Positions 12,032 to 41,164 of a stretch of DNA of 64,000 nucleotides are shown here, piece after piece. Numbering within the stretch: the first letter of the stretch is position 1; each line of letters starts with the position of its first letter. The position numbers were made by a program, and so were the translations under genes. Source of the DNA: Candidatus Altiarchaeota archaeon (GTDB lineage: Archaea; Altiarchaeota; Altiarchaeia; IMC4; SCGC-AAA252-I15); assembly GCA_043813075.1 (NCBI GenBank), contig JBDRLL010000003.1:64001-128000 (forward strand). The letters are read 5' to 3'. The notes beneath the pieces were generated by a model that had not been told where the DNA came from, ran no database searches, and saw only the letters and a list, made by a program, of their open reading frames with translations.

Positions 12032-12164
12032 TATTTTAGTAGAGTATATTAACAGGCCATAAAGAAAACTGGGGGGCAAGCCACAAAGCGTAGTGGCTAT
12101 CGCACCTGAGACCATAATGCATTGGGTACTGGGTCTTATTAAGTTTTTCACCGTATTCTTACCT

Positions 12165-14064: not shown

Positions 14065-15069
14065 TTATTTTAACTTGAAGTCGACGCAGTACCTTGAGAC
14101 TCCGGGTGAGAAAGACCCGCACTCGACCACATCCAACACCTCGACAGCAACCCCCAATATGCCAGCAGACTCGACCGCATCACCGCTAGCACCGATACTG
14201 CTCTCCGCGAAGACATAATAATGGACGACACCACCCGTATTCAACGCCGGCAACGCAATATCCATGAAGCTTCCAGCATCCTTGGGCAGCGGCATCACTA
14301 TCCTGTCAAATGTCCCGAGGCTGGGGACGACATCACGAACGTCGCCACAGTAGACGCTAACACTGGTCTTACTCATCAAAACGTTCTTACGCATGAACTC
14401 CACCGCATCAGGATTCAACTCTACCGCATGGACTTCACAGCCTGAAACACGTGAAATCAGTATTGCATACGGGCCTACGCCAGCGAACATGACGAGCACC
14501 CTTTCGCCGGGACGGGCCTGTCTCGCCACCCGCATACGCTCGCCGGATAGACGGGGGCTGAAGTAGGCCTTAGCCACGTCAAGCCGGTACCTTAGGCCGT
14601 GCTCGGAGTGTATCGTCCAGGTCCTGTCTTCCCCAGCTATCACTTGCAGGGACGGCACACGATACTCTGAGTCGACCTTCCCGGTCTTCATGAGGACAAC
14701 CTTAACGTTCTTGAAGGTTTTGATAAGCGCTTCACCCACAATATTCTTCCTTGGCAAAAGGCCTTCAGGCAGGTCGATTATGGCTATGTCGCCGATTATG
14801 TCGAATGATGACGGCACTAGAGGCAGTTCACCTTCAGACAGAGTATTCCTAAGGGAATCAAGGAGGGAAGTCGGGGCTCTTTCGTTTAACGGACCTTCAC
14901 GCTCCACGAACTCCACGCCATCGACTTCAATTTTCTCTTTCACAGGGAAGAGCACGAATCCCTTCTCCCGAATAACTTTGCGGGAGTTATCCCAAACGCC
15001 CGAATCCATGACAATATTCTTGACGGACTCCGCCCTCCGGACCTCAATCTTAGCGTACATCACCGACAC
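14065..15069 (-). CDS. trm5: Trm5-family tRNA (G37) methyltransferase (Met10+-like)
   Basis: SFDIIGDIAI, YFSPRLSGER, MFAGVGPY, ELNPDA and DRIVMPLP motifs; start may be ATG 15060. Confidence 0.88.
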   Translation of the reverse strand: MSVMYAKIEVRRAESVKNIVMDSGVWDNSRKVIREKGFVLFPVKEKIEVDGVEFVEREGPLNERAPTSLLDSLRNTLSEGELPLVPSSFDIIGDIAIIDLPEGLLPRKNIVGEALIKTFKNVKVVLMKTGKVDSEYRVPSLQVIAGEDRTWTIHSEHGLRYRLDVAKAYFSPRLSGERMRVARQARPGERVLVMFAGVGPYAILISRVSGCEVHAVELNPDAVEFMRKNVLMSKTSVSVYCGDVRDVVPSLGTFDRIVMPLPKDAGSFMDIALPALNTGGVVHYYVFAESSIGASGDAVESAGILGVAVEVLDVVECGSFSPGVSRYCVDFKLK

Positions 15070-23036: not shown

Positions 23037-25292
23037 ATGTTTGTGGAACACCCGCTCGTGAGGAAGGATAAGCTGAGGCTCAGGAGGTATCAGGAGGCGG
23101 TGGTAGCCAGGGCCATAGACGAGAACACCCTGGTCGTGCTGCCGACAGGATTGGGCAAGACTATTGTCGCGGCGATGGTGGCGGCAGTACGGCTTGGGAA
23201 GTACCCGAACTCCAGGGTGCTTTTTGTCGCGCCCACTAAGCCGCTGGCAGTCCAGCACGAGAAGACGTTCAGGGACCTGCTGACTGTGGAGGAGACCACG
23301 GTACTAACCGGCCAAGTTAGTTCTGAAAAGAGGAGGGAGCTGTGGAACACCAGCAGGATAATATTCGCGACACCGCAGACAATACAGAACGACTTGTACA
23401 GGGGGTTGAAGCTGGATGACGTGTCGCTGATAATTTTTGACGAAGCCCACCGGGCTGTCGGGGACTACAGTTACGTTGGCATAGCAGGGGACTACGTGAA
23501 GCAGTCGCCCTACCCGCTCATACTGGGGCTGACCGCTTCACCCAGCTCGGAGCGGGAGAAGGTGGGGGAGATAAGGAAGAACCTTTTCATAAGGAACATA
23601 GAGGCCAAGACCGAGCACGACAGGGACGTGAAGCCTTACGTCCAGGATGTGAAGGTTGATTGGGTTAGGGTCGAGCTGCCGGAGGAGATAAAGGAGTTGA
23701 AGACCGTTCTTGAGGATGTTCTGAGGGAGCAGTTGAAGAACCTGAAGGAATACGGGTACCTTGAGAGCGCGCAGATACAGAAGGTCAACAAGAGGATGCT
23801 CTTGGGGATACAGCATGAGATAAGGAAGGAGATAACGGGGGGGATGGATTCTTACGGGCCGGCGTCGCTGGTGGCTTCGGCGATAAAAGTCAACCACGGG
23901 CTGGAGCTCCTTGAGACGCAGGGCGTTACCGCGCTACACGAGTACTTTAAGAGGATGTTCAGCCAGAAGACGAAGGCTGTTAGAAAGCTTGTTGGGGACC
24001 ATCGGATGATAAAGGCCTCATACACGGCGAAGAAGCTCATTGAGGAGGGTGTTGAACACCCCAAGCTGGACGAGCTCGTGAAGATAGTGACGAGACACAG
24101 GGACCAGAAGGTGCTGGTGTTCACACAGTACAGGGATTCGGTTGACAAGATAATAGAGCGGCTGAACGAGGCCGACATACTAGCGCACGAGTTCATAGGT
24201 CAGGCTGCGAGGGGCGTTAGCAAGGGGATGACGCAGAAGAAGCAGATAGACGTGTTGGAGAAGTTCAAGGAGGGCGCATACACTGCTTTGATAGCGACCT
24301 CGGTCGCTGAGGAGGGGTTGGACATCCCTAAGGTGGATGCCGTAGTCTTCTACGAGCCGGTGCCTTCGGAGATAAGGAGCATACAGAGGAGGGGTAGGAC
24401 AGGCAGGAGTGCTGCGGGGAAGGTCTACGTGCTTATCGCGAAGGGGACGCGGGATGAGGGATACTATTGGGCTTCAGTGCACAAGGAACGGAGGATGGGG
24501 AATATTGTCAGGGAGTTGAGGAGCGGGCTGGACAAGCAGCAGAGCCTCGAGGATTATGACGCTGGGGGGATTAGTGTGGAGGATAAGGTGGAGACGCCAG
24601 CGGCTTACGGGCAGCAGAGCATAGCCCAATACTCTTTCAGGGACTCTGATGAAGTCAGGATATTCGTGGATGTGAGGGAGCGGAACAGGAACATACTCGA
24701 CCAGCTTAAGGAAAAGGCGGTCATAGAGGTGAGGCAGCTTCCGGTTGGAGACTATTTGCTGTCGGACAGGGTGTGTGTGGAGAGGAAGACTATGGAAGAC
24801 TTCCTGCAATCGATTATAGACAAGAGGCTTATGCAACAGCTGACTGAGATGCGGCGGAACTTCATGATGCCTGTGCTCCTGGTGGAAGGGTGGAGCAACC
24901 CATACTCTATGAGGGACATACACCCTAACGCCATAAGGGGCGTACTAGCGTCCATCGCAGTGGACTTCGAGGTGAGCATCATACCAAGCATGGATGAGGC
25001 GGACACGGCCGGGATACTCTACGCGATGGCGAAGCGGGAGCAGGTGGATGAAAACAGGGTTGTGGGCTTGAGAGGAGAGCGCAAGCCGCTCACCCTGGAG
25101 GAGAGGCGCAGATACGTTGTGGAGTCGCTGCCAAACGTTTCCGCGGTACTGGCAGGCCGCCTGCTGGATGAATTCGGGAGTGTTGAGGGTATTATGACCG
25201 CGTCTGAGAGCGATTTGATGCGTGTTGAGGGGATAGGCGGGAAGAAAGCGGCTGAAATCAGGAATGTTGTGAAGAGCAAGCACGATAAATAG
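23037..25292 (+). CDS. hef: Hef helicase-nuclease (DEAH helicase + ERCC4 nuclease + HhH)
   Basis: PTGLGKT, DEAH, TAS, QRRGRTGR; GDY...VERKT nuclease motif; C-terminal VEGIGGKKA HhH. Confidence 0.95.
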   Translation: MFVEHPLVRKDKLRLRRYQEAVVARAIDENTLVVLPTGLGKTIVAAMVAAVRLGKYPNSRVLFVAPTKPLAVQHEKTFRDLLTVEETTVLTGQVSSEKRRELWNTSRIIFATPQTIQNDLYRGLKLDDVSLIIFDEAHRAVGDYSYVGIAGDYVKQSPYPLILGLTASPSSEREKVGEIRKNLFIRNIEAKTEHDRDVKPYVQDVKVDWVRVELPEEIKELKTVLEDVLREQLKNLKEYGYLESAQIQKVNKRMLLGIQHEIRKEITGGMDSYGPASLVASAIKVNHGLELLETQGVTALHEYFKRMFSQKTKAVRKLVGDHRMIKASYTAKKLIEEGVEHPKLDELVKIVTRHRDQKVLVFTQYRDSVDKIIERLNEADILAHEFIGQAARGVSKGMTQKKQIDVLEKFKEGAYTALIATSVAEEGLDIPKVDAVVFYEPVPSEIRSIQRRGRTGRSAAGKVYVLIAKGTRDEGYYWASVHKERRMGNIVRELRSGLDKQQSLEDYDAGGISVEDKVETPAAYGQQSIAQYSFRDSDEVRIFVDVRERNRNILDQLKEKAVIEVRQLPVGDYLLSDRVCVERKTMEDFLQSIIDKRLMQQLTEMRRNFMMPVLLVEGWSNPYSMRDIHPNAIRGVLASIAVDFEVSIIPSMDEADTAGILYAMAKREQVDENRVVGLRGERKPLTLEERRRYVVESLPNVSAVLAGRLLDEFGSVEGIMTASESDLMRVEGIGGKKAAEIRNVVKSKHDK

Positions 25293-25318: not shown

Positions 25319-27628
25319 ATGGACTCCGATGCTGAGAGAAGGCTTTTATGGCGGAAGATAGGGCAGAGGGAGAAGCAGAGGCGGAATAACATAGAGGAGA
25401 TTAAGAAGATAATACACTCCGGCGACCCCACAGGCAAGAAGAACGCCAAGACTCTGCTGAGGCTTGTGCTGCATGGCGAGGGCATAAAGTCCAGTGAAGC
25501 CAGCAAGATGATAGGTGTGGGCAGGAACGTCATAGACCAGTGGGCTAGACTGCTGGAGGATAAAGGCCTTATAGTAGTGGACGCCCACGGACACCCTGAC
25601 CCAAAGCTGATGCCAAGCCAGGAGATTCTGAATAAACTCAACAAATACAAGCAGGAGAAGCTGAACCTGACGCTCGGCGAGGAGATACTCTCCTATGAAA
25701 GCGCTCTGGAGAAGAAGAAGGAGGAGTTGACTAAGGAGCATGAGGAGAAGATAAAGCTGGGGGAGGATTTGGAGAAGATAAAGCTTCAGCTGGCTGAGAA
25801 GGAGGAGGAGCTGAAGAAGGAGCATAGGGAGCGTCTTGACCTGGAGAAGAGGATGGTGGAGATTGAGGGGGATGCTGCCGGCGAATACGATGAGAAGCTA
25901 AGGATGCTTAGGGAGCAGTTGAACCGTGAGCGCACGGAGCGCATGAAATTCGAGACCTTGATGAAGGAAGAGCATGATAAGCTGCTTGCGGCTGAGGAGG
26001 AGAAGAGGAGGGCGTGCGCTAAGATGGAGGAGGAGCTTATGAAGCGTGAGGCTGAGATACTGGACAGGGAGAAGTCTCTTGAGGAATACGAGGAGCTTGA
26101 CGCCATCTTCGGTGATGACGTGGAAGATAAGAGGATAAGTGACGCGAAGAAGAGCATCGACACCATCAGGGAGAGGATTGGTAAGGTGGGTGAGAAGATT
26201 GCTGGAGTGGATGATGAGTTAGGGCAGGATATACGGAGCATATTCTCTGATGAGGAGGATTTAGCCAGGATACTTGGGGAAGAGCTTGCACTGCTGAAGA
26301 GGAGGATGGCTGATCTGGAGTCAGCAGGGAAGGGCCTGAAAGCGGATGGTTCAGGAAAGCCGCCGGACGAGAAGCCACCCGCACCACCCACCCCGCCAAA
26401 GCCACCGGAGCCCGCATTTGGTCTGGATGCGACTGCAACAGCATTATCTGACCGGACTCCGGAAAGTGTGGTTCCAAAAACAGGGAAGCTGAAGCCTCCA
26501 GCACCACCGACACCGCCAACACCTCCAGGACCGCCTGAGCCAGTGGATGAGGGCAAGGCCGTGGCGGAGCTGAAGACAGAAGCCGTTGCAGAGAAGAGGG
26601 AGACTATAAAACCAACAGCAACGCCTGCGGCAGCAAAACCAGATGCGCCCACACCAAGGCAAACCACACCCCCATCACAGACTACGCCATCAACAGCAGC
26701 ATCAGAGCCGACGGCCGCACCACCGGCAAAAACAAAGGTAACCCCACAATCGCCGGCACCAACACAGGAAAAAACAACAATACAAAAGCCGCCAGTGATC
26801 ACTAGAACGCATACTACAGCACAGACACATCCTACCACAACGCCCGCAGGGCAGGTGACTGCGCCGACAACGCAGGCAAGAACACCAATCACTCCGCCAA
26901 CATCGCCGACACCAACACAGGAAAAACCAACAACCAGTCAGCCGTCACATATCAATCAAAAAACGCCGGCAGAGCAGGGTACACCAGATGAAGAGCCGAG
27001 TGGAAAACAAGCAGAGGGAAAAACGCCGGCAACACAGGCAGGACCTCCAGAACCTCCTGGAAAACCAGGAGGAAAAGAGGAGGCTCAAGCAAAGCCGGAA
27101 AAGCGTATAGCCAGCATGGAGGAGATGAGGAAGGCTCTTGAAGAGCCGGAAGAAGAGGGAGGAATCGTTTTAAAACCCCCCAGACCACCCTCCAATGAAG
27201 AAGAGCATCCCCATGAGATACCGCTGCCCCCTGAGACAGAGGAGAAAATGATGGAAGACGAGGAGCCGGTGCGCAGGATAGCGAGCATCGAGGAGATGCG
27301 GAAGATATTCATAGATGATAAGGAAGACGAAAAAGCGAAGGAAGAGGAGAAAAAACTCGGAGTCGACATCGAAAACCTGATCGAACTGCTGGAAAACAAG
27401 AAGATAATCAAGATTAATGATGCTTCTAAAGCCATAGGCGTGAACGATAACACCATAAGGATATGGGCCAACAGGCTGCAGGAGAAGGGTGTGGTGACGG
27501 TAAAGAAGCATTTGATGAGGGAGGATGAGATACTGCTGAACCCGTACGTGAACACCAAGGAGATAATAGAAGCGCATGAGGCAGAGCGGATAAGGGAAGA
27601 GATTAAAAAACTGCATAAGGAACAATAA
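25319..27628 (+). CDS. Large coiled-coil, Pro/Thr-rich protein with N- and C-terminal winged-helix-like domains
   Basis: Two copies of the pattern ASKxIGV..xI..WAxxLxxKGxxxV; Glu/Lys coiled coil; low-complexity linker. Confidence 0.75.
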   Translation: MDSDAERRLLWRKIGQREKQRRNNIEEIKKIIHSGDPTGKKNAKTLLRLVLHGEGIKSSEASKMIGVGRNVIDQWARLLEDKGLIVVDAHGHPDPKLMPSQEILNKLNKYKQEKLNLTLGEEILSYESALEKKKEELTKEHEEKIKLGEDLEKIKLQLAEKEEELKKEHRERLDLEKRMVEIEGDAAGEYDEKLRMLREQLNRERTERMKFETLMKEEHDKLLAAEEEKRRACAKMEEELMKREAEILDREKSLEEYEELDAIFGDDVEDKRISDAKKSIDTIRERIGKVGEKIAGVDDELGQDIRSIFSDEEDLARILGEELALLKRRMADLESAGKGLKADGSGKPPDEKPPAPPTPPKPPEPAFGLDATATALSDRTPESVVPKTGKLKPPAPPTPPTPPGPPEPVDEGKAVAELKTEAVAEKRETIKPTATPAAAKPDAPTPRQTTPPSQTTPSTAASEPTAAPPAKTKVTPQSPAPTQEKTTIQKPPVITRTHTTAQTHPTTTPAGQVTAPTTQARTPITPPTSPTPTQEKPTTSQPSHINQKTPAEQGTPDEEPSGKQAEGKTPATQAGPPEPPGKPGGKEEAQAKPEKRIASMEEMRKALEEPEEEGGIVLKPPRPPSNEEEHPHEIPLPPETEEKMMEDEEPVRRIASIEEMRKIFIDDKEDEKAKEEEKKLGVDIENLIELLENKKIIKINDASKAIGVNDNTIRIWANRLQEKGVVTVKKHLMREDEILLNPYVNTKEIIEAHEAERIREEIKKLHKEQ

Positions 27629-27629
27629 G

Positions 27630-28949
27630 ATGGGTTCATGCACGCTGATACTAAACTACGGGAGATGCGGTTGGGGTTCATGCCTCTTCTGCGGCTATGG
27701 AAGGTCATCGGGCAGGAAGCCTGACGTCGACGCATTAAAGAGGGAATTCGACGACTTCTTCGGAAAGATGGGGGAGGACGCGGAAGAAGTGAAGGTGTTC
27801 AGTTCCGGAAGCTTCTTGGACGACAGGCAGATACCGGCGGAAGCCAGGAGACACTTCATAGGGAAATGCATGGAGAAGGATATAAGGAGGGTGACTATAG
27901 AATCCCGCCCGGAATACGTCACAAAAGAAAAGCTCGAAGAATTCGAGGGGGTGAAGGTCACCCTGGCGATAGGATTAGAGTCCGCGGACAACCAGGTTCT
28001 TGAAAGGATAAACAAGGGATTCAGGAGGGAGGACTATGAGAGGGCTGCGGACATTGTGAAAAAGTCAGGGGGTGATGTTAGGACATATCTGCTCGTGAAC
28101 CCGCCATACGTGAAGGATGTCTGTAAGAGCGTGGATGATTCCGTTGAATACGCGTTAAAACACTCTGACAGCATAGTCCTGATAAACCTCCTCCCACACA
28201 GTAACGCGCCGCTATTCAAGAAATGGGTTGCAGGAGAATGGAGCTTCCTAGATAGGAGAGGATTCGATGAGGCGACAGCCCGGTGGGCTGACAACCCTAA
28301 AATCGAACTGGATTATGAGACATTCAAGTTCACGCCGCAATTCCCAGACCATATGAAGACGCCGATAAATGGCGTTGGGGAGGAGTATCTGACACACCCC
28401 TATTTCGAGGCCTGGCAGGACTATCTGGACAGGTTCTACCAGCCGTCTGAACGGAAGAAGACGCTGCTCCTCCTACCATGCAGCTACAGGAAACCGTACA
28501 GCGAGTCAAAGACCCACAAGGAGATAATAGGGGTTATCGGGGAAATCGGCGGGAGAGACCGCATACACGAAGTCATGCTCAGTAATGCGGGAGTCATACC
28601 AAGAGAATTCGAGGACAGATACCCCTTCAACGCATACGATTGGGATGAGAGCCTGGAGACGCCGGAGATAAGGAAGAGGTATGTGCAAGTCACGTCAGAG
28701 AGAATAGCCAACTATTTAAGAGCGCACGGAAAAAGATATGACAGGAAGGCCTGCTACCTCCGGAGAGCGTCGGACTCCCATCAGGCAGTCGAGAAGGCGT
28801 TCAAAGAGCTTGGTATGGAATTCGACAACCTGCTTTCCCCAGAAACCGACGGCAAACTAGATGGCGGGACAAGCGGCCTTAGGAAGCCGGAAGCGCTAGA
28901 TGATTTGAGGGAGGGTTTAAGACGGCTACTGCAAAATTCCACGCGATAG
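27630..28949 (+). CDS. Archaeosine biosynthesis radical SAM (RaSEA-like) fused to an ArcS-type (DUF5591-like) domain
   Basis: CGWGSCLFCGY, KVFSSGSFLD, IESRPEY, AIGLESAD, INKG and TYLL motifs, then LLLPCSYRKPYSESKTH...GVIPRE. Confidence 0.82.
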   Translation: MGSCTLILNYGRCGWGSCLFCGYGRSSGRKPDVDALKREFDDFFGKMGEDAEEVKVFSSGSFLDDRQIPAEARRHFIGKCMEKDIRRVTIESRPEYVTKEKLEEFEGVKVTLAIGLESADNQVLERINKGFRREDYERAADIVKKSGGDVRTYLLVNPPYVKDVCKSVDDSVEYALKHSDSIVLINLLPHSNAPLFKKWVAGEWSFLDRRGFDEATARWADNPKIELDYETFKFTPQFPDHMKTPINGVGEEYLTHPYFEAWQDYLDRFYQPSERKKTLLLLPCSYRKPYSESKTHKEIIGVIGEIGGRDRIHEVMLSNAGVIPREFEDRYPFNAYDWDESLETPEIRKRYVQVTSERIANYLRAHGKRYDRKACYLRRASDSHQAVEKAFKELGMEFDNLLSPETDGKLDGGTSGLRKPEALDDLREGLRRLLQNSTR

Positions 28950-31749: not shown

Positions 31750-33204
31750 TCACACTGAATTATCCACGCCCTTAGACGGCTTAAATAGCAGGATAATGCG
31801 CAATACGCGCAATAGAGGCTTCATCAAGGCATGGAACATTCTTGTTCTCCCGAACAGGAGGTGGGCTTTACCGCCGATTATCGCACGGTTTATCATCTTC
31901 CTGCCCACCGGGTTTTCATAGCTTGTCGCCAGGTTCTTCCTGAATATCCGCTTGTTGGACATACGTAGTACTTCTTCCGCTTTCTCTGTGTCGAAGCCTA
32001 CCTTACAGACGTATGACATGTGATCCCAGTAATCCAGGTCTGTTATGCCGACTTTCCCTTCCTCAAGGAATTCGTCCATAAGCCTGCCGTGGGGGGTGAA
32101 CTTCTGGTAGACCACCATGCTGGGATTCACTTCGTCCATGAAGTCTGTCTTCTCGACTATCGAATCCATTGATTCCAGGGGAGAGCCGACTATCATGGAG
32201 GCTATGACAAACACCCCGTTTTCAATCAGTATTGAGAACACCTCCTTGACTCGCAAGGCATCGTATCTCTTGCCGTAGTATCCCATTATCTCCTCGTTAA
32301 CGTCCTCAATGCCGAAGAGTATGGCCTTCACCCCAGCCTCGCGAGCTAGGGGTATCAGGTCAGGGTGGCTTATGAACGTGTCGACCCTCGCCTGGATGCT
32401 CGCGTTGATATCCAGCTTCCGCTCTGAAATGAGTTGCAGCAGCCGCCTGGTCTTGGAGACGTCGCCGAAGAAGTTGTCGTCAGCGAACATCAGGTTTTTC
32501 ACACCCATGCTCCGGGCATAGTATTCGATGTCTTCAGCCATGCGTTCGGGACTCCTTGTCCTGTATGGTGTGAAGAAGTCTTTTGAGGAGCAGAACAGGC
32601 ATTTGTGGGGGCACCCCCGGGACCAGTCGACCAGTAGGAATGGTTTTTCACACCATACGAAGTCGTAGTCATTGACGTCTATCAGCCTGAAGTCCGGGCG
32701 GGGCAGGTCATCCAAGTCAACCGTATCCTGTCTCCCAGAGTATCTGACCGCGCCGTCCTCCAGATAGTAGACCCCCTTAACCAGGGAGACTGGCTTGCCT
32801 GAATCGATCGAGTCCACGAGGCTCTTGAAGACAAAGTCTCCCTCGCCGGAGACTATGTAGTCCATAACCCGGCCCTTGAGTAGTGATTCGAAGTCCCGGT
32901 CCCTGAAGAAGATGTAGCTGCCTCCTGCGACAATAACCATGGTGTCGTCGAGCTCACGCAACTCCCTTAAGAGCTTTAGTGATTTAGTGTATGAAACGGT
33001 GTGAAGCAGGCTTATGCCCAGCACCTGAGGCTTGAACTCCCTCACCGCGTCGAACAGGATGCTGTCACCGCAAGCAGTCAAGTCTATAAGACGCACTTCA
33101 TGGTCAGGCTCAAGGATTGCGGCGATATACAGCAACCCTAGGGGCATCGCATTACCCAGAACTGATTCGACGTTAGAGTCGGGATTGACAAGTAAAACCC
33201 TCAT
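31750..33204 (-). CDS. Cobalamin-binding radical SAM protein (class B-like) #1
   Basis: MRVLLVNP...PLGLLYIAA, VAGG, SGEGD, WSRGCPHKCLFC, FADDNF and FGIE motifs. Confidence 0.9.
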   Translation of the reverse strand: MRVLLVNPDSNVESVLGNAMPLGLLYIAAILEPDHEVRLIDLTACGDSILFDAVREFKPQVLGISLLHTVSYTKSLKLLRELRELDDTMVIVAGGSYIFFRDRDFESLLKGRVMDYIVSGEGDFVFKSLVDSIDSGKPVSLVKGVYYLEDGAVRYSGRQDTVDLDDLPRPDFRLIDVNDYDFVWCEKPFLLVDWSRGCPHKCLFCSSKDFFTPYRTRSPERMAEDIEYYARSMGVKNLMFADDNFFGDVSKTRRLLQLISERKLDINASIQARVDTFISHPDLIPLAREAGVKAILFGIEDVNEEIMGYYGKRYDALRVKEVFSILIENGVFVIASMIVGSPLESMDSIVEKTDFMDEVNPSMVVYQKFTPHGRLMDEFLEEGKVGITDLDYWDHMSYVCKVGFDTEKAEEVLRMSNKRIFRKNLATSYENPVGRKMINRAIIGGKAHLLFGRTRMFHALMKPLLRVLRIILLFKPSKGVDNSV

Positions 33205-33216
33205 CCTGGATAACAA

Positions 33217-34692
33217 TTATACTTTATCAAGGTATAAGCGCCTGGCCGCCCCCCATAATCTCCATTCCACAGGATGGTTGAAGTACCTCCGCCGCCACCT
33301 GGCTTCAGCTGAAATATTGAAGAGGTAGTGGAATACATCGTATGCAGCCACCATAAGACTGCTTCCCCCAAGCCACGCCTTCTTCACCTCCGGACCCCTG
33401 GAGGCCAGCCGCTCATGGAAGTGGGTGAAGCGGACTATGTTTGATATCGTATCCAACTGGGACTGGGCTTCCATGCTCATCCAGGGGAGACGCACGGAGT
33501 CGAACCTCCATCCACCCCATTCTTCCAGGGAACCATGCACCATCATGCCCTGGGAGACCGCGGTTTCATGGATGGGCGTGCCAGGCTGGGGTATGAGCAT
33601 CCATAGGTTACATACCTCCGTCCTAGGGTTCAGCCTCCTGAGCTCGTCCACCAGGCTGAGGGTCTTGGACAGGTCTCCTGGAGTCTCATCAGGCCAGCCG
33701 ATGATGAAGCTCACCATTGGCGTTATCCCATAGTCCCCGCACTTTCGGACAGAATCAGTTATCTGGCTGACTGTGATACCCTTCCCAATCCCGTCAAGTA
33801 TCCTCTGGGAGCCTGACTCAGCGCCGAAAAACAGCGTCTCGCATCCGCTATCCCCCAGGAGTCTGGTGAACTCATCATCGTATCCGGAGAAATAGTCAGC
33901 CCTATTATAGGCCATCCACTTCACGTCCCACCCCTCCCGTATTATCGCCGAGCAGATGCTCCGCATCCTCTCCTTGTCGACAAAGGAGTTGTCCTCCTGG
34001 AAGGTTATGCTGTTTGCGCCGACTTCTTCTATTATGTTCCTTAGCTCCTCCACCACAACCTCGGGTTTCTTCGCCCTCCAGCCGCCCTTGCTGTAGCAGT
34101 GGTTAAAGCAGAACGTGCAGTTGTGGGGGCATCCCCTGCTGGACTGGTAGGAGAAGTATTCCCTGCAGTCGATGTATTTACGCAAGTCCACCAGATCGTA
34201 GTGGAGGCTGCCTATGGCGTTCATGTCCGTGAAACCCCTCGGTGGGGTTGAGACGACAACCCCGTCTTTCTTGAATGCGATTCCGTTGACATCCTTTAGC
34301 GGACCCTCATCCCTGACAGTGTTGGCAAGCTCTATGATGGTTTCCTCGCCGTCACCACTGACGGCGATGTCGACGAGACTGCTGGCCGCAGTCTGCTCCG
34401 GCAGCATCGTGGCGTGGGGCCCGCCCCATACTATCGGGATGTTTGGGTCTTCCTCGCGTATCATGCCTGCGACAGCGAGGCCGTGGCTTATCTGCGGCCC
34501 TGTCATGGATGTTATGCCTGCCAGAAGATACTCGCCGTCGAGATGCTTGAGGTCTTGAATCCGTGTGTCCACGATTTTCGGGTCGTAACCAGCATTCCGG
34601 AGGACTGTTCCAAGGTTTAGGAGCGGGAGCGGCATGTAGGGCGCCCTCTCTTTTTTTCCAGGGTATATCAGGAGTATTTTATCTGTCGCCAT
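33217..34692 (-). CDS. Cobalamin-binding radical SAM protein (class B-like) #2
   Basis: ILLIYPG...PLPLL, WGGPHAT, GDGEET, SSRGCPHNCTFC, GAESGSQRIL and PQPGT motifs; start MATDK at 34692. Confidence 0.92.
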   Translation of the reverse strand: MATDKILLIYPGKKERAPYMPLPLLNLGTVLRNAGYDPKIVDTRIQDLKHLDGEYLLAGITSMTGPQISHGLAVAGMIREEDPNIPIVWGGPHATMLPEQTAASSLVDIAVSGDGEETIIELANTVRDEGPLKDVNGIAFKKDGVVVSTPPRGFTDMNAIGSLHYDLVDLRKYIDCREYFSYQSSRGCPHNCTFCFNHCYSKGGWRAKKPEVVVEELRNIIEEVGANSITFQEDNSFVDKERMRSICSAIIREGWDVKWMAYNRADYFSGYDDEFTRLLGDSGCETLFFGAESGSQRILDGIGKGITVSQITDSVRKCGDYGITPMVSFIIGWPDETPGDLSKTLSLVDELRRLNPRTEVCNLWMLIPQPGTPIHETAVSQGMMVHGSLEEWGGWRFDSVRLPWMSMEAQSQLDTISNIVRFTHFHERLASRGPEVKKAWLGGSSLMVAAYDVFHYLFNISAEARWRRRYFNHPVEWRLWGAARRLYLDKV

Positions 34693-34732
34693 GCTTAATG
34701 TTTGATGATTATTACAAGAGTACCATATAAAG

Positions 34733-36073
34733 ATGGAGTTGGGGAAAAGCAGGAGCCTCTGTCCCATATGCCTGAAGGAGATTGACGCGAGCATAATCCA
34801 GGATGATGGGAGGGTGTTCATCTCTAGGGAGTGCGCTGCGCATGGATTGTTTGTTGACCCACACCTCTACGAGGATCCGGTCATATACAAGGCGCTCTCC
34901 AACATGGACTGCGGCGGGGATGACGTCCTACCGGACACTCTAGTGTTCCACACTACACCAGCATGCAACATGGACTGCCAGTTCTGCCCTATACCAGGCG
35001 AGATGAGGTCTGGTGAAGGCCCTGAGATAGGTGAGATTATGGATGAGGTCTCCAGATTCCATGGGTCTACCATATTCCTGTGCGGGGGAGAGCCGACCAT
35101 AAGGGGGGATTTGCCGGAGATAGTCGGGAAAATCTCAGGTGCAGGGAAGAATGTGCTGGTCTTCACCAACGGACTGAGACTAGCGGACAGGAAAAACGTG
35201 GATTCCCTCAAGGCCACAGGCCTGACCCAGGTCATACTCTCGTTCAGCACGTTTCAAGAGGAGAAGGACATTAAAGTCTACGGCTCCCGCGTCACTTCAT
35301 TGAAGCTGAAGGCCTTGGAGAACCTGAAGGCCACGCTGACCCCGACCGGCTTCTCATTCCTAGTATTCAAGGACATTAACGAAGACGAGGTGGATAAGGT
35401 GATCGGATACGCGGTAGACAACCGGGAGTGGGTCAAGAGCATATGCTTTCAGGTGGTCTGGAGGCCTTCCGAAAGGGACTCCAGCATGGTGAAGCAGAAG
35501 GGGATAATAGACCTTGTGCGAAAATCCGCTGGAATTGATGTTGAAGACTTCATAGAATGCACTGTCTTCGGCAGCACTGTGTCTGAGATTTTCAGGAGGA
35601 TTACGGGCAGGGGTGGGCGCGTGTATTCCAGGTGCGAGCTAAGATGCCAGTCATGGGTGTCAGATGGACGACTTGTGCCATTATCCGGGATGATTGATTT
35701 GAAGACTGTGAACGAATCGCTACGGAGAATTAACAGCCGCCTCAAGGGGTCAGCAGCCCGGAAGATTGGTGTGATGATCTTGTTTTTCCCTTACACAGAA
35801 TTATTGAAGTCGTTCATATTCAACAGGGACTTCAGAAACTTCTGCCTTAGCAGGTTTTCAGGCATGCTCTCAGGTATAGTGCACGGCAGGATGTTCCGCG
35901 AGTCGTTGGGGAAGGACATGCTCGGATTCATGGTGGGGAGATATTATACCAGGTACAACATCGACTTGGGGTTGGCGGATACTTGCAGGTACTGCAGGTC
36001 TCCTGAGGGAAACGACATCTCATACTGCATATGCGATATGATAGGGTGGACTGAGAACAAGCAGACTGCTTGA
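34733..36073 (+). CDS. MJ0619/Tes-like radical SAM protein #1
   Basis: N-terminal SRSLCPIC...CAAHG metal-binding module; CNMDCQFC; GGEPT; TNG; Cys-rich C-terminus. Confidence 0.85.
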   Translation: MELGKSRSLCPICLKEIDASIIQDDGRVFISRECAAHGLFVDPHLYEDPVIYKALSNMDCGGDDVLPDTLVFHTTPACNMDCQFCPIPGEMRSGEGPEIGEIMDEVSRFHGSTIFLCGGEPTIRGDLPEIVGKISGAGKNVLVFTNGLRLADRKNVDSLKATGLTQVILSFSTFQEEKDIKVYGSRVTSLKLKALENLKATLTPTGFSFLVFKDINEDEVDKVIGYAVDNREWVKSICFQVVWRPSERDSSMVKQKGIIDLVRKSAGIDVEDFIECTVFGSTVSEIFRRITGRGGRVYSRCELRCQSWVSDGRLVPLSGMIDLKTVNESLRRINSRLKGSAARKIGVMILFFPYTELLKSFIFNRDFRNFCLSRFSGMLSGIVHGRMFRESLGKDMLGFMVGRYYTRYNIDLGLADTCRYCRSPEGNDISYCICDMIGWTENKQTA

Positions 36074-36095
36074 TGAGCCGCTTGGTCCTGGTGAG

Positions 36096-37433
36096 TCATG
36101 GATTATCTGATTCCCGCGACCGGAACACTTCCCTAAGGCAGAACGGAACGACTCTATCTCCCTCAAAGCCTCCGAGACTGCAGCAGGACATGAATTCATA
36201 ATCCACGTTTGACGCGTCAAAATACCTGTTAGCTATTATACTGCACACCTGAGGCAGCATCATTGTTATCGGATGGTCATTTTCCGCAATGATCTTCCAT
36301 AATCCGGATGCGCTCGGCAGCATGAACAATATTGCGCGCGCGTCTCTGACGCTAGAGAGGAATGCGAGGATAGTCTTCACTAGGGCGCCTGCTTTCCCTG
36401 CTTTTCCATTGAAGTCTGTGCTAACGCTTATCTTGGATAGCCTTTCTGAGAGTGCCTGCATGTCCAGCAGATGGTTTAAAGGCGTTAGAGAATCCCCCAT
36501 ACGGACTAGGTATAGCCGTAGGTAGCATGCTGAAACCCGCCTACCACCCCTCCCAGACATCTTTCGCATAAGCTGGCTGAAGCAGAAGCCGAACCTGGTG
36601 CACTCGAGGAAGTCTTCCAAGCAGGTTCCCAGATGCATGCATACCAGATCAGCGGACTTGCTTGCAGGCACTGAACGCCCCGCGTCATTCCCATTTGGAT
36701 TCCAGTAGGATGAGAAAGCTAAACCCCTTATCCTACCCCTATGACGCCTCAAAAGTTCTATGAAGCCTGGAACCTGGTCCTCGTTTACGCCGTCCCGTAG
36801 GACAACATTCAGGAAGACTGGTATGTCTAGTTGAAGTAGGTTTTTTAACGCCCCCATCTTCTTCCCGACCACTTCCTCGCCGTATAGCCGGATGCCCTGA
36901 CCAGCATCCAGTGTGTCCAATGAGAGCACTATCAGTGGCTTGTTTCTTGAGAATGAACTGGCATAATCCATGCTGCCCAGCCTAATCCCGTTGGTGAAGA
37001 ATGAGGGATGATATCCCATAGACCTTAATTCACCTATTATCCCCGGCAGGTCGTCGCGCATGGTAGGCTCCCCGCCGAACAAGTATATTATGGAGCCGCC
37101 GAACCCAGCGGCAGTGGAGACTAATTCTTCCAGAGATATCGGATGTTCTTCCACCATGCCTTGAGGCTTAAAGCAGTCTGGGCAGTTCATGTTGCATAAT
37201 CCGGTGACATCCAGAAAAGCAGTGTCCGGAGACCATTCACCGTCTTCAGGGTCGATGGCCAGGAGTGACTTCATTGACGCGTAGACTTGCTTGTCTTGGA
37301 AAACGTGCGGGCTCACTGAAGTGCCATGCTCCGGGCATTCCTGCCTTATGAACATTCTCCCGCCATCCTCGAAGACCGTTGCATCAACATCCCTCAAGCA
37401 CTTCGGACAGATGCTCCGTGAATTTGATTCCAA
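36096..37433 (-). CDS. MJ0619/Tes-like radical SAM protein #2
   Basis: SRSICPKC...CPEHG; CNMNCPDC; GGEPT; TNG; C-terminal SCCS...VPFC; TTG start. Confidence 0.87.
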   Translation of the reverse strand: MESNSRSICPKCLRDVDATVFEDGGRMFIRQECPEHGTSVSPHVFQDKQVYASMKSLLAIDPEDGEWSPDTAFLDVTGLCNMNCPDCFKPQGMVEEHPISLEELVSTAAGFGGSIIYLFGGEPTMRDDLPGIIGELRSMGYHPSFFTNGIRLGSMDYASSFSRNKPLIVLSLDTLDAGQGIRLYGEEVVGKKMGALKNLLQLDIPVFLNVVLRDGVNEDQVPGFIELLRRHRGRIRGLAFSSYWNPNGNDAGRSVPASKSADLVCMHLGTCLEDFLECTRFGFCFSQLMRKMSGRGGRRVSACYLRLYLVRMGDSLTPLNHLLDMQALSERLSKISVSTDFNGKAGKAGALVKTILAFLSSVRDARAILFMLPSASGLWKIIAENDHPITMMLPQVCSIIANRYFDASNVDYEFMSCCSLGGFEGDRVVPFCLREVFRSRESDNP

Positions 37434-37488
37434 AAAAACCCCTCAAACACAGATTATGAGACAGGCAAGATATATTATTGTTAAGTTC

Positions 37489-37506
37489 TGATATTCAATA
37501 ATATCA
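37489..37506. promoter_or_regulatory. Palindromic putative operator in a divergent promoter
   Basis: tgatatt-caat-aatatca (7-bp arms) between divergently transcribed radical SAM genes. Confidence 0.35.
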
Positions 37507-37545
37507 AGGGTGTACGCTAGTGCAAAGAATTTCCGAATGGTTTGA

Positions 37546-39210
37546 ATGAAAATCAGGTTGAGCTGCTTTAATCCGTTCTCATATAGCATAACCCCCCTCG
37601 GACTGGGATACAAAAACGCTTCCCACAACAACGCTGGACACGACTCTATGATACGCCTTTTTGAACGGGAGGAGTCAGCGTTCTACGACACACTGCTGTC
37701 GATGGACTTTCTTGGGAAGAGATTCCCGCTAATATCGATACCAGAATACATACAACAGATCGAACTGGTGGAGAATGAAGTTTTCGCAGAGGAGCTCGGC
37801 TTCATAGACAGGGGGGAGATGAACTACAGGTCCAGATTCCCCTCTGAAACAGAGAGGCTGGTTGGGATATGCGACTCCATAGCGGACAGCCTGTCAGGCA
37901 ACAGTATGGTGGGATTCAACATAACGTCAATAGCCATGGGACCGACACTATACATCTCGAAGGCAATTAGGGAGAGGGATGATGGCGTGAAGATAGTGTA
38001 TGGGGGGCCGATAACAGACATGATGGCTGGAGTTTTAGACCCCATAAACGCCATGCACAAGTCCATCAACGAGTCAATGAGGAGTAGCGGCATATACGGG
38101 AGGTACGCTGATTTTCTGGCTGGGAACGTCGACTTCCTGGTTCACGGTGAGGGTGAGGAGACTATTGTGGAAATTGCTAATGCGATTGATGATGGAGGTG
38201 ACGCGGAGATACCGGGGACTACCGCCATCAGGGAGGGGTCTTTCAAGAGGAGTCGCCCTAGGAGGCCTGTTGACTTGGATGGGATATGCCGTCCAGACTT
38301 TGATGGCATAGACATGAGGACGTACGGGTATGTCACGTTCAACTTCTCCAGGGGTTGTATTAACGCGTGCACGTTCTGTGACGAGTGCCTGTTCTTCAAG
38401 GGCTACAGAGTCAGGGATCCGGCAAAGGTTTTGGAGGAGTTGAGCGCCGGCTCAGAGAGATATCCTGGTAAAAGGTTTCTCGCGTGCGACAGCCTGCTGA
38501 ACGGAGACCCTGCGAGGCTGAAGGAGCTCTGCAGGCTGATTACTGAGTCAGGGCTGCGTATAGACTGGAGCGGATACCTGCGGCTGCCTGAGACGGACGA
38601 GGAACTAGTAGACCTGCTCTATGAGTCCGGTTTCAGGAGGCCGAAATTCGGTTTAGAGACCATCGACGATGGGGTCTATGAGGAGGTTGGCAAGCGGCAG
38701 GAGACCGGTCACGCGCTTAGGATCATGGACTACTGCAGGAGGAAGGGCATGAAGGTGACCGCGAACTTCATGATCGGGTATCCGGGGAGGGGAATGGACT
38801 TCGAGCTGGAGGTGATGGATAGGGTTAAGGGCATACGAGGGCACTATGATTACATGCCGCTTGAATCGATAAACGTGGGTATAAGGTCGAGTGTCGCGAG
38901 CGACCCTGAGAGGTGGGGTTTCGAGATAAAAAGCACCCATGAATTCAGTGAGAGTGACTGGGAGTATTATACACTGGCAAGGTCGTATATCCCGGGAATC
39001 ATAACGTACACGAGGAATTCGCTGTCACGAAGCGAGGCTGAGAGGATATTCGAGGAATACAACAGGCACGGTCTTCTCAACAAGAGGGGGTTGGAGTATG
39101 GACTCCACAAGTATGGATTAGGATGGCTGAAAAAGTATAGGCGGTATATTCCGTTCAGCATATCCAACTGGCTTAAGCTCCAGTATCTTAAGGAGGAGAT
39201 AATCATTTGA
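37546..39210 (+). CDS. Cobalamin-binding-like radical SAM protein #3 (divergent N-terminus)
   Basis: VYGGP, HGEGEET, FSRGCINACTFC, DSLLNG, FGLE and NFMIGYPG motifs. Confidence 0.85.
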   Translation: MKIRLSCFNPFSYSITPLGLGYKNASHNNAGHDSMIRLFEREESAFYDTLLSMDFLGKRFPLISIPEYIQQIELVENEVFAEELGFIDRGEMNYRSRFPSETERLVGICDSIADSLSGNSMVGFNITSIAMGPTLYISKAIRERDDGVKIVYGGPITDMMAGVLDPINAMHKSINESMRSSGIYGRYADFLAGNVDFLVHGEGEETIVEIANAIDDGGDAEIPGTTAIREGSFKRSRPRRPVDLDGICRPDFDGIDMRTYGYVTFNFSRGCINACTFCDECLFFKGYRVRDPAKVLEELSAGSERYPGKRFLACDSLLNGDPARLKELCRLITESGLRIDWSGYLRLPETDEELVDLLYESGFRRPKFGLETIDDGVYEEVGKRQETGHALRIMDYCRRKGMKVTANFMIGYPGRGMDFELEVMDRVKGIRGHYDYMPLESINVGIRSSVASDPERWGFEIKSTHEFSESDWEYYTLARSYIPGIITYTRNSLSRSEAERIFEEYNRHGLLNKRGLEYGLHKYGLGWLKKYRRYIPFSISNWLKLQYLKEEIII

Positions 39211-39827
39211 CACATAGGGGAGAGCTTACCGGAGAATTGCCTGAACCCGACTGGGATGCGGTCTGGGGCAGGAATTTAGGCAAGAATCTGACGGTATTTA
39301 GGGTATACTCTGGGCTCAGGTTCAGAAGCTATAGAAGACTGTTCAGTGGACTGGACCTGGAGGGTAGGGGGGTGCTGGAGATAGGGGGTGGGACAGGACA
39401 GTTAGGCAGCATGCTTGGGAGGGAATTCAAGTGCAATGTAACACTGATAGACGATAGTGAAGAGGCTTTCAGATTCCACTCCAGATTCGGCATAAAAGGG
39501 GTGGATTATGTGAGGGGGGATGTCTTCAGGCATGAGGGAGTCTACCATCTAGTCTACAGTGACGGGCTTATAGAACACTACAGGGGCGCTAAGAGGGAGG
39601 ATCTGATACGGCGTCATTCCCTGTTATGCGGTGAGGGGGGTTACACCGCCTTTTTTGTGCCAAAAAAATCGTTTTTCGTTGACATGTTCCTCACACTCAG
39701 GGGCTATTACGAGGAGAAGTACGACGTGGATGGCATCACTTCAGAGCTGGAGGAGAATGGCCTTGAGGTCCTCAAGACTGTGGAGGATTTCCATATGATA
39801 GGTGTGTTATGCGAGCAGAGGGGATAG
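39207..39827 (+). CDS. Class I SAM-dependent methyltransferase
   Basis: VLEIGGGTG and SDGLIEHY motifs; overlaps both neighbours. Confidence 0.87.
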   Translation: MTHRGELTGELPEPDWDAVWGRNLGKNLTVFRVYSGLRFRSYRRLFSGLDLEGRGVLEIGGGTGQLGSMLGREFKCNVTLIDDSEEAFRFHSRFGIKGVDYVRGDVFRHEGVYHLVYSDGLIEHYRGAKREDLIRRHSLLCGEGGYTAFFVPKKSFFVDMFLTLRGYYEEKYDVDGITSELEENGLEVLKTVEDFHMIGVLCEQRG

Positions 39828-41164
39828 CCTTTGAGGCAAGGACTAGGAGCCTCTGCCCAGTTTGCCTCAAGCAGGTGGACGCGAGCGTAAGGATTATTGA
39901 GGGTAAGGTCAGCATCAGCAAGGAATGCGACAAGCATGGCTCCTTCGAGTCGCCGCATTTTTGGGGTGATGAAGTGCTTTATCACGCGATGAAGAGGATA
40001 GCGGACATGTGTGATGACGGGGTACCCCCGGACAACCTCGGGTTGTATCTCACACAGAAGTGCGATTTGAGTTGCAGCTACTGTTATCTGAAGGATAATG
40101 AGGAGGGGATGGAAGAGCCGAGCATAAGCGATGTCTTAGATTATGTGTCCGGATTTAAGGGGTCGACTGTCATACTAAGCGGGGGGGAGCCGACACTCAG
40201 GGACGACCTGCCTGAGATAATCAAGGTGGTGCGGGAGAGAGGATACATGATTGTGCTCGCGACAAATGGCATGAGGCTTTCGAGAGAATACGTGGAAGAC
40301 CTGAAGTCATGCGGTTTGGGCATGGTGATGCTGTCTTTCACGACCTTTAAGGAGGAATACTCAGAGAGACTGCAGGGCATCAACACTGTCGAGGCTAAGA
40401 GAAGCGCTGTAAGAAACCTTAATGACGCATGCATCCCATTGTTCCTCTACATTCCTGTTTTGAGGGGGGTGAACGACAGTGAGATAGGCGCATTCATAGA
40501 TTACGCCAAATCCGTGAATGCGGTGAGGGCGGTTGACTTCAATGTGACAACACACCCAGGAGGATTCTCAGACAAGCTGACGCTCACACAGAAGGAGATT
40601 ATCGACGTGATAGGAGAGCATACTGGCGTTGGCGTTGAGGACTTTACGGACTGCACGTTATCCGTGCACCTTGCATCAGAGGCATTAAGGAAGGTATTAG
40701 GTGGTGGGAGGAGGAGTTCAGGATGTTATCTGAGACTATACTTCCTCAGGTCAGGGGAGGTCTTAAGTCCAGTGAGCGGGATTCTGGACTTGAAGTATGT
40801 TAACATGAGGCTTCTATCAGCCAACGCTATCCTTGACTCGAAATCACCGCTCAGGAGAATCAAGGCGTTGAGCATCATCGCGGGATTGTTCCTATCAACC
40901 GCTTGGCGGAATCAGGAGGGGATGATGCTTTGTTCAAGTGTTGTCAGAAGCATTGCCTCCAGGAGAGGTGGCTCGTCTGCTGGCGGCGGATTACTATGCA
41001 TTAATGTTATGCGATTCAACGACCGCTTCAACGCTGACCTTGGTTTCACTCGGGCATGCTGCTCGCACAGCATCAGGAATGCTTCAGAGAAGCCAATGTG
41101 CGCGTGCATTAGGGAAATGTATTTCTGCAGGCCGCCTGTCTTTAAGAAAAGGAATCTAAAGTAG
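39809..41164 (+). CDS. MJ0619/Tes-like radical SAM protein #3
   Basis: TRSLCPVC...CDKHG; CDLSCSYC; SGGEPT; TNG; GVND; C-terminal ACCS...PMCAC. Confidence 0.87.
   Translation: MRAEGIAFEARTRSLCPVCLKQVDASVRIIEGKVSISKECDKHGSFESPHFWGDEVLYHAMKRIADMCDDGVPPDNLGLYLTQKCDLSCSYCYLKDNEEGMEEPSISDVLDYVSGFKGSTVILSGGEPTLRDDLPEIIKVVRERGYMIVLATNGMRLSREYVEDLKSCGLGMVMLSFTTFKEEYSERLQGINTVEAKRSAVRNLNDACIPLFLYIPVLRGVNDSEIGAFIDYAKSVNAVRAVDFNVTTHPGGFSDKLTLTQKEIIDVIGEHTGVGVEDFTDCTLSVHLASEALRKVLGGGRRSSGCYLRLYFLRSGEVLSPVSGILDLKYVNMRLLSANAILDSKSPLRRIKALSIIAGLFLSTAWRNQEGMMLCSSVVRSIASRRGGSSAGGGLLCINVMRFNDRFNADLGFTRACCSHSIRNASEKPMCACIREMYFCRPPVFKKRNLK

Follow-up and report, generated by a model that had tools for sequence, protein, structure and literature searches.

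The stretch of DNA analysed here (the window) comprises 64,000 nucleotides of contig JBDRLL010000003.1 (positions 64,001 to 128,000 of the forward strand; assembly GCA_043813075.1) from a Candidatus Altiarchaeota archaeon. It carries a gene whose product joins a RaSEA-like radical S-adenosylmethionine (radical-SAM) domain to an ArcS C1 (DUF5591) domain in a single polypeptide. The modified base archaeosine (G+), located at position 15 of tRNA, is a hallmark of archaea, and to our knowledge the last steps of its synthesis are biochemically known for only a few Euryarchaeota and Crenarchaeota. The analysis of this gene and its relatives suggests that the product is probably a single-chain archaeosine synthase, which would add lysine to tRNA carrying 7-cyano-7-deazaguanine (preQ0) and then cleave the adduct by radical chemistry to yield G+.

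The fused gene and its motifs

The gene consists of one open reading frame (ORF) of 439 codons with zero internal stops. The initial annotation had described it as a fusion of a RaSEA-type domain with an ArcS catalytic-type domain, and the motifs on which this description was based were all found in the translation. In the N-terminal half these were C13-GWGS-C18-LF-C21, FSSGSFLD (residues 57-64) and ESRPEY (residues 91-96), and in the C-terminal half the ArcS motif PCxxxKPYxxSxxH was present as P283-CSYRKPYSESKT-H296. The fusion itself was also upheld, as each half was placed in a named family by matches to Pfam and NCBIfam models. Judged from sequence comparison, the agreement of these motifs and domains with the two families is far beyond chance. 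The features of the gene and of its two upstream neighbors are listed in Table 1.

Table 1. Coordinates of the fused gene, its parts and its upstream neighbors in the window
Feature	Position	Strand	Basis
Whole gene, fused RaSEA-like/ArcS-C1 protein, 439 aa	27630..28949	+	Single ORF; both domains by Pfam and NCBIfam; stop codon 28947-28949
Radical-SAM core homologous to RaSEA, aa 1-205	27630..28244	+	TIGR01210, hhalign, Foldseek
C13-x4-C18-x2-C21, presumed [4Fe-4S]/SAM cluster cysteines	27666..27692	+	Conservation among homologs
Connecting helix and strand between the domains, aa 206-234	28245..28331	+	Model; conserved in the fused family
ArcS C1 (DUF5591) domain, aa 235-400	28332..28829	+	NF040592, Pfam, PDB 2q07, Atlas cluster
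ArcS signature P283-C-x3-K-P-Y-x2-S-x2-H296	28476..28517	+	Present in 44/44 aligned homologs
C-terminal helices, aa 401-439	28830..28946	+	Model; no family match
Upstream 769-aa gene, conserved neighbor, not part of the enzyme	25319..27628	+	TAA 27626-27628, 1 nt before the fused-gene ATG at 27630
Hef (helicase + ERCC4 nuclease + HhH)	23037-25289	+	Two genes upstream of the fused gene

The radical-SAM half

Residues 12-161 matched the Pfam Radical_SAM family (E 3.7e-14), and the best NCBIfam match of the N-terminal half was to RaSEA (TIGR01210; E 8.5e-41, 140.2 bits, residues 3-179 against positions 15-202 of the 313-position model), followed by MnmL as the second-best family (E 7.4e-9). For the comparison of profiles, an alignment of 44 fused-family sequences (A1) was set against a second one, A2, built from 40 canonical RaSEAs. 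Each of these representatives matched TIGR01210 at E<=1e-40, with scores of 229-358 bits. The hhalign comparison of A1 with A2 covered residues 3-205 with a probability of 100, an E-value of 2.6e-48 and 35% identity over 201 columns. The RaSEA homology proposed for the N-terminal part was therefore borne out by the profiles, although it extends over residues 3-205 and not over the first 235 or so. Motifs common to the fused family and RaSEA in the profile alignment were SGSFLD, ESRPE, AIGLE, INKGF and TYLL-NPP, while the RaSEA N-terminal extension is missing from the fused family.

The three cysteines C13, C18 and C21 were invariant in all 44 aligned homologs and in all 68 sequences of a larger alignment, and the same two alignments showed invariance of S59-G60-S61, E91 and P94. 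The Cx4Cx2C spacing, found in 44/44 aligned homologs and in 67/67 full-length locus ORFs, had been listed initially among the RaSEA-like features. The motif is indeed present, but its spacing is untypical of RaSEA, given that 38 of the 40 canonical representatives have Cx7-9Cx2C and only two have Cx4. A Foldseek search of the PDB with the N-terminal half returned the radical-SAM barrels of Elp3 (E 6.5e-9), queuine lyase 6p78 (template-modelling (TM) score by target 0.71, 230 columns) and viperin.

The ArcS half and the predicted structure

The C-terminal half matched Pfam DUF5591 over residues 262-397 (E 5.3e-19; 69 bits, where the gathering score is 26) and the NCBIfam ArcS model NF040592 over residues 235-397 (E 8.9e-20; positions 254-408 of 575). 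The concern that this domain might turn out to be unlike ArcS or DUF5591 was thus dispelled. As the initial annotation had proposed, the fused protein lacks the TGT-like (tRNA-guanine transglycosylase-like) and PUA domains that ArcS has. The C2 domain is missing as well, with no TGT, TGT_C2 or PUA match even at a Pfam E-value of <=1.

The ArcS signature, defined as PCx3KPYx2Sx2H in the sections of PMC5699537 and bioRxiv 10.1101/2023.04.13.536721 that treat it, was conserved at C284, K288, P289, Y290 and S293 in 68/68 sequences. H296 was replaced by tryptophan in seven of these 68, namely the Thermoproteota/Culexmicrobium loci L055, L057, L067, L076 and L078 and the Nano/Parvarchaeota pair L066 and L069, all with the other motif residues intact. 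The top PDB match by sequence was AF0587 (2q07; E 6.9e-7), exactly across the ArcS motif, and Foldseek also paired the C-terminal half with AF0587 over 173 columns. Additionally, an Atlas cluster of standalone 210-residue DUF5591 proteins gave a TM score of 0.87 on residues 238-435.

The AlphaFold2 model computed on A1 had a mean predicted local distance difference test score (pLDDT) of 93.6 and a predicted TM score (pTM) of 0.87, and these high values imply that the two domains are packed in a defined, fixed arrangement, as far as a model can tell. Residues 206-234, which were matched by neither RaSEA nor ArcS models (NCBIfam, hhalign), are predicted to form a helix (209-219) and a strand (225-228) in a block with pLDDT >=85, and W204, T231 and F234 are conserved in this region of the 44-sequence alignment. 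Beyond the ArcS domain, helices are predicted at residues 404-409, 414-418 and 420-434; the conservation of this tail (residues 401-439) is moderate in the same alignment, with N400, L401, L402, L423 and L426 standing out.

Conservation of the fusion across lineages

A protein search of 5.8 billion sequences gave 525 matches at E<=1e-3. Among the 120 matches listed (lengths 350-464 residues), 118 carried both PF04055 and PF17884, all 16 with an organism name were from Candidatus Altiarchaeota, Altiarchaeales or Altiarchaeia, and seven bore Joint Genome Institute (JGI) labels reading 'archaeosine synthase' or 'archaeosine synthase alpha-subunit'. An exhaustive HMMER search of 1.84 billion representatives yielded 1575 matches at E<=1e-3, of which 11 (402-488 residues, representatives at 50% identity) covered the query from residue <=10 to >=398.

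When each GTDB species was scanned through a single genome, 110 of these species-level genomes were found to encode a relative, and 80 loci were kept. Their host labels were Altiarchaeota-type (31 loci), DPANN-named (21), Desulfurococcales/Thermofilaceae/Culexmicrobium (5), Euryarchaeota/Methanobacteriota (4) and unspecified (19), with Aenigmatarchaeota, Micrarchaeota, Iainarchaeum, Nanohaloarchaea, Nanoarchaeota, Parvarchaeota and Nanobdellati as the DPANN names. The nearest relatives of the window protein are from Altiarchaeota (68% identity to P0002 among the matches listed; L003 as the closest neighbor in the tree), and all 44 aligned family members matched both the RaSEA and the ArcS models at E<=1e-10. 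A stop or frameshift between the two domains, which would have argued for two separate genes, was not seen in the window, where the frame is unbroken, and 71/80 loci have one open frame of at least 400 residues (69 by a strict intact-frame test, plus L034 with 472 and L054 with 439 residues). Seven of the remaining loci are cut by contig ends, and two are interrupted or short (L028 with two frames, L063 with 385 residues).

Altogether, these observations establish the fusion as real, conserved across lineages and old. That it might be an artefact, produced by misassembly or by a sequencing error joining two adjacent genes, is extremely improbable. No support for this explanation was found; two loci, L028 and L063, look interrupted or short. 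It is countered by the same unbroken architecture in most of the independent loci, by the two domains in nearly all database proteins listed, by the 11 representatives that span the query and by a conserved linker that was modelled with confidence. Read-through of two genes was ruled out on the same counts of single-frame loci and two-domain proteins.

Searches for other arrangements returned little. Longer fusions (770-2195 residues, for example with TGT or PUA domains) gave no match at E<=1e-3, which is weak evidence for their absence. A search for shorter, split relatives gave 19 matches. Those with at least 50% identity lie on contigs of <=5.3 kb and therefore probably represent truncated genes rather than true splits.

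Phylogeny and other domain orders

In an IQ-TREE phylogeny of radical-SAM domains (quick search, unrooted), the 44 fused N-terminal domains were separated from the 40 RaSEAs by a branch with a Shimodaira-Hasegawa-like approximate likelihood ratio test (SH-aLRT) value of 99. The fused set consisted of the window protein and 43 locus ORFs, after 24 of the 67 available locus ORFs were dropped to thin the Altiarchaeota. This topology fits a single origin of the fusion, with the fused clade as a sister group of RaSEA and not a member of it.

The position of the clade bears on the alternative that the product is another 7-deazaguanine derivative or that the amine donor is not lysine. Such a change of product or donor could be read from the well-supported separation of the radical-SAM clade, from a Cx4Cx2C motif like that of queuine lyase 6p78 together with a score under the RaSEA cutoff, and from the replacement of H296 in a tenth or so of the sequences. 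RaSEA is nonetheless by far the top family for the N-terminal half, and the core of the ArcS motif is invariant, so that we consider this alternative very unlikely.

Fusions in the opposite order were found as well, in two proteins of the representative set. P0159 (497 residues, a fragment at both ends) has DUF5591-TGT_C2-PUA followed by a RaSEA part that scored 202.5 bits on TIGR01210 and is nested within canonical RaSEA (SH-aLRT 99). P0155 (680 residues) has a DUF5591-like region at residues 91-279 followed by a near-complete RaSEA at residues 339-610. These two proteins indicate that the modules became fused on more than one occasion, and by sequence the opposite-order fusions appear to have arisen independently.

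Two further observations came from the tree. P0154 (544 residues) has a radical-SAM part at residues 319-522 that groups with the fused clade beside L066 and L069; the roughly 318 residues ahead of it gave no Pfam match at E<=1e-5, and it has no DUF5591. The N-terminal domain of L049, from a 2.3-kb contig labelled Methanosarcinales, is almost the same as its counterpart in L048, with end branches of 0.018 and 0.014. The two group with Nanohaloarchaea loci, and the Methanosarcinales label may be a binning error.

Linkage to tgtA and proposed function

A TGT gene was detected by tblastn within the flanks (+/-10 kb) of 14/80 loci. In 11 loci tgtA lies <=3.3 kb upstream on the opposite strand, and in four of these the gap between the divergent genes is 43-62 bp. 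All five TGT neighbors tested were of the tRNA-G15 type (TgtA), with 434-480 bits on TIGR00432 against a cutoff of 350, and carry C2 and PUA domains. A blastp comparison at 1e-5 revealed no additional RaSEA or DUF5591 ORF in the regions flanking the 80 loci, and the 61 other ORFs scanned in the window include no separate arcS, raSEA, second DUF5591 gene or PUA protein.

The invariant signatures in both halves, their obligatory covalent connection, a two-domain structure modelled with confidence and the linkage to tgtA together lead us to the proposal of a single-chain alpha-beta archaeosine synthase. This proposal is also supported by the best NCBIfam matches of the two halves being only to archaeosine-pathway families, and by the existence of the opposite-order fusions. 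In the proposed mechanism, ArcTGT, encoded elsewhere, would first insert preQ0 at tRNA position 15. The C-terminal ArcS-C1 domain would then join the epsilon-amino group of lysine, the presumed donor, to the nitrile, giving preQ0-Lys. The N-terminal domain would hold a [4Fe-4S] cluster through C13, C18 and C21 and generate a 5'-deoxyadenosyl radical from SAM, and this radical would break the C-N bond of the lysine, so that the formamidine of G+, the expected product, remains. Since the modules are covalently joined and predicted to keep a fixed orientation, the intermediate could go straight from one site to the other.

The tRNA-binding domains of ArcS (TGT-like N, C2 and PUA) would be done without in this mechanism. 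ArcS is reported to take the preQ0 nucleoside, its 5'-phosphate and short RNAs, with an L-shaped tRNA being unneeded (PMC11298593), and an enzyme lacking PUA is therefore plausible. The loss of these domains could also mean that the fused protein is not self-sufficient and needs a separate tRNA-binding partner, such as a canonical ArcS, a PUA protein or ArcTGT. The immediate divergent neighborhood of tgtA, with its C2 and PUA domains, in the four closely spaced loci would agree with such a partner, as would the acceleration of lysine transfer by the D-arm described for Thermococcus kodakarensis (PMC11298593). The activity of ArcS on the nucleoside and on short RNA fragments points the other way, as does the lack of a second RaSEA or DUF5591 ORF in the flanks, and the section of PMC11298593 on T. 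kodakarensis reports that ArcTGT was not co-purified with ArcS. A dependence on a partner is, on this balance, rather unlikely.

A related question is whether the substrate is tRNA position 15 at all. The enzyme might instead act on the free preQ0 base or nucleotide, producing G+ base for later insertion, on other RNAs, or on DNA in the manner of phage ArcS2. Pfam detected no domain that binds nucleic acids, and this would suit a substrate other than tRNA, as would the use of preQ0 nucleoside and 5'-phosphate by ArcS (PMC11298593) and the formation of dG+ in DNA by the C1-only ArcS2 (bioRxiv 10.1101/2023.04.13.536721). The neighboring transglycosylases, however, are of the tRNA-G15 type, with TIGR00432 scores above cutoff and PUA domains, and not DpdA. 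Additionally, the gene is found among housekeeping genes and is conserved over whole phyla, unlike mobile DNA-modification islands. We therefore regard a different substrate as distinctly unlikely.

Several observations weigh against the proposal of a single-chain archaeosine synthase. The scores of both halves are under the curated whole-protein cutoffs (140.2 bits against 212.15 for the TIGR01210 equivalog; 70.8 and 69.6 bits against 440 and 600 for NF040592 and NF053620), as is expected because each match is to a partial domain. The final 100 or so RaSEA alignment columns are absent, with the hhalign match ending at A2 column 279 of 380, and the CxxC...CxC C-terminal module seen in 35/40 RaSEAs occurs in 0/44 fused proteins. 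Because the radical-SAM half forms a separate clade, its chemistry could, going by the tree, differ from that of RaSEA. The genomic context is also uneven. The 11 tgtA-adjacent loci are all DPANN-named or unspecified, and among the Altiarchaeota-type loci only L025 has a TGT gene, 9.4 kb off. Neither tgtA nor a preQ0-synthesis gene (queC/D/E) was found among the 61 other ORFs scanned in the 64-kb window, and QueC/D/E are absent from the 39 most recurrent neighbor clusters of the related loci. Finally, formation of G+ in which no radical-SAM partner takes part is reported for Methanocaldococcus jannaschii ArcS and for phage ArcS2 (PMC11298593, bioRxiv 10.1101/2023.04.13.536721), and thus lysine chemistry is not the sole option of the C1 domain.

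The broader proposition, that the fused clade represents a minimal archaeosine synthase sufficient by itself and that Altiarchaeota, much of DPANN and some Thermoproteota make G+ mainly by this route, is offered tentatively, as one that could well hold but toward which we lean slightly less than away.

Other genes of the window

The window is an ordinary piece of archaeal chromosome. Its genes include those for GARS, PurL/PurQ, class-I LysRS, PCNA, eIF-6, HerA, Hef, a Trm5/Taw2 enzyme and a MiaB-like radical-SAM enzyme, and no tRNA genes were found in its 64 kb.

The gene immediately upstream of the fused gene encodes 769 residues, with weak helix-turn-helix matches at both ends (residues 50-101 and 696-725), and between them lie a coiled-coil-like segment and a long low-complexity segment rich in Pro and Thr. 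Its homolog cluster, for which no Pfam or NCBIfam family match was found, is represented in 37 loci, in 29 of which it lies <=500 bp from the fused gene, and the two genes may be co-transcribed. Examples of these homologs are L031:5803-7143 and L005:8550-9992. Hef is found near the fused gene in 22 related loci, with a median separation of about 2 kb. The recurrence of Hef and of the 769-residue type as neighbors in Altiarchaeota indicates a conserved order of Hef, the unknown gene and the fused gene.

Other tRNA-modification genes in the window are a MiaB-like gene with UPF0004 and radical-SAM domains (12093-13403, +) and a gene for a Trm5/Taw2-type methyltransferase (14068-15069, -). Five radical-SAM genes are clustered at 31753-41161 on both strands. 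Two of them have B12-binding domains (31753-33216 and 33220-34821), two have an HMPTM-type N-terminal zinc ribbon (36099-37433 and 39809-41161), and the fifth (37546-39207) has neither. A methyltransferase-like ORF (39207-39824) lies in the same cluster.

Novelty and implications

Full-text searches found no paper on this fusion or on this archaeosine route in Altiarchaeota or DPANN, and an earlier mention in primary papers or their supplements is possible. One DPANN paper that mentions archaeosine covers, in the relevant part, bacterial queuosine genes (PMC8204110). Fused sequences are already public with automatic two-domain annotation, including the 'archaeosine synthase' labels from JGI, and the fusion is not very surprising because ArcS and RaSEA are already known as an obligate complex. 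It nevertheless serves as a Rosetta-stone confirmation of the complex that was found experimentally.

If the protein is active alone, the lysine/radical-SAM route would reach Altiarchaeota, DPANN and some Thermoproteota. The literature discusses only Euryarchaeota, with the arcS and RaSEA set, and Crenarchaeota, mostly without arcS, at least in the sections of PMC11298593 that deal with distribution. The minimal catalytic unit would then be about 430 residues in two domains without PUA, and its compact single chain, modelled with confidence, would lend itself to the structural work on ArcS-RaSEA-tRNA that is described in PMC11298593 as still missing from the field.

If the clade is in addition a self-sufficient main route, it would represent a fourth genomic solution beside ArcS with RaSEA, QueF-like and GAT-QueC. 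Catalysis would then require neither the PUA, C2 and TGT-like domains present in ArcS nor the Cys-rich module at the C-terminus of RaSEA. As DUF5591 occupies the place of this Cys-rich module in the fused protein, the comparison suggests that the module is a docking device in the two-subunit enzyme.

Comparison with known systems

The closest counterpart of the fused protein is the euryarchaeal pair in which ArcS (alpha, lysine transferase) adds lysine onto preQ0 at tRNA position 15 and RaSEA (beta, radical-SAM lyase) converts preQ0-Lys to G+, with lysine transfer by T. kodakarensis ArcS reported to take place only in complex with RaSEA (PMC11298593). Both systems have the same two catalytic modules, a DUF5591/C1 domain with PCx3KPYx2Sx2H and a TIGR01210-type core with SGSFLD, ESRPE and INKGF. 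They differ in that the modules are on two polypeptides there and on one here, and in that the fused protein lacks the TGT-like N, C2 and PUA domains of ArcS as well as the N-terminal extension and Cys-rich C-terminal module of RaSEA. Its Cx4Cx2C motif, its separate clade and its host lineages set it further apart. The fused protein would thus, by its sequence, work like ArcS-RaSEA yet it fails full membership of either family. No solved ArcS-RaSEA complex was present among the eight PDB sequence matches or the Foldseek matches listed.

The ArcS half also resembles the stand-alone C1-only ArcS of some archaea and the ArcS2 of phages and viruses (bioRxiv 10.1101/2023.04.13.536721 = PMC10516641), which share the DUF5591 core alone, without tRNA-binding domains. 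The closest sequences to residues 235-434 were the C1-only proteins P0149-P0153 of about 210 residues, with 38-40% identity and 125-132 bits. These are separate small proteins, whereas DUF5591 is always joined to the radical-SAM half in the fused family. ArcS2 of phage nt-1 is reported to give dG+ in Escherichia coli without a radical-SAM partner (bioRxiv 10.1101/2023.04.13.536721).

The radical-SAM half shares its Cx4Cx2C motif (CxWGxCxFC) and fold with queuine lyase 6p78, with a sequence match of E 1.1e-4 over residues 7-133. Like RaSEA, this lyase presumably breaks a C-N bond in the side chain of a 7-deazaguanine, although one passage on the step describes it otherwise. It differs from the fused protein in that it is bacterial, serves salvage with free queuine as its substrate and has no DUF5591, and at about 20% identity its match is far weaker than that of RaSEA.

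Lastly, QueF-like and GAT-QueC are the non-homologous archaeosine synthases described for Crenarchaeota (PMC5699537). Like the fused protein, they are alternative genomic solutions for the last step, the conversion of preQ0 to G+, where a lineage lacks canonical ArcS. Their folds and chemistry are unrelated, however, as they use ammonia or glutamine amidotransfer and have no radical-SAM step.

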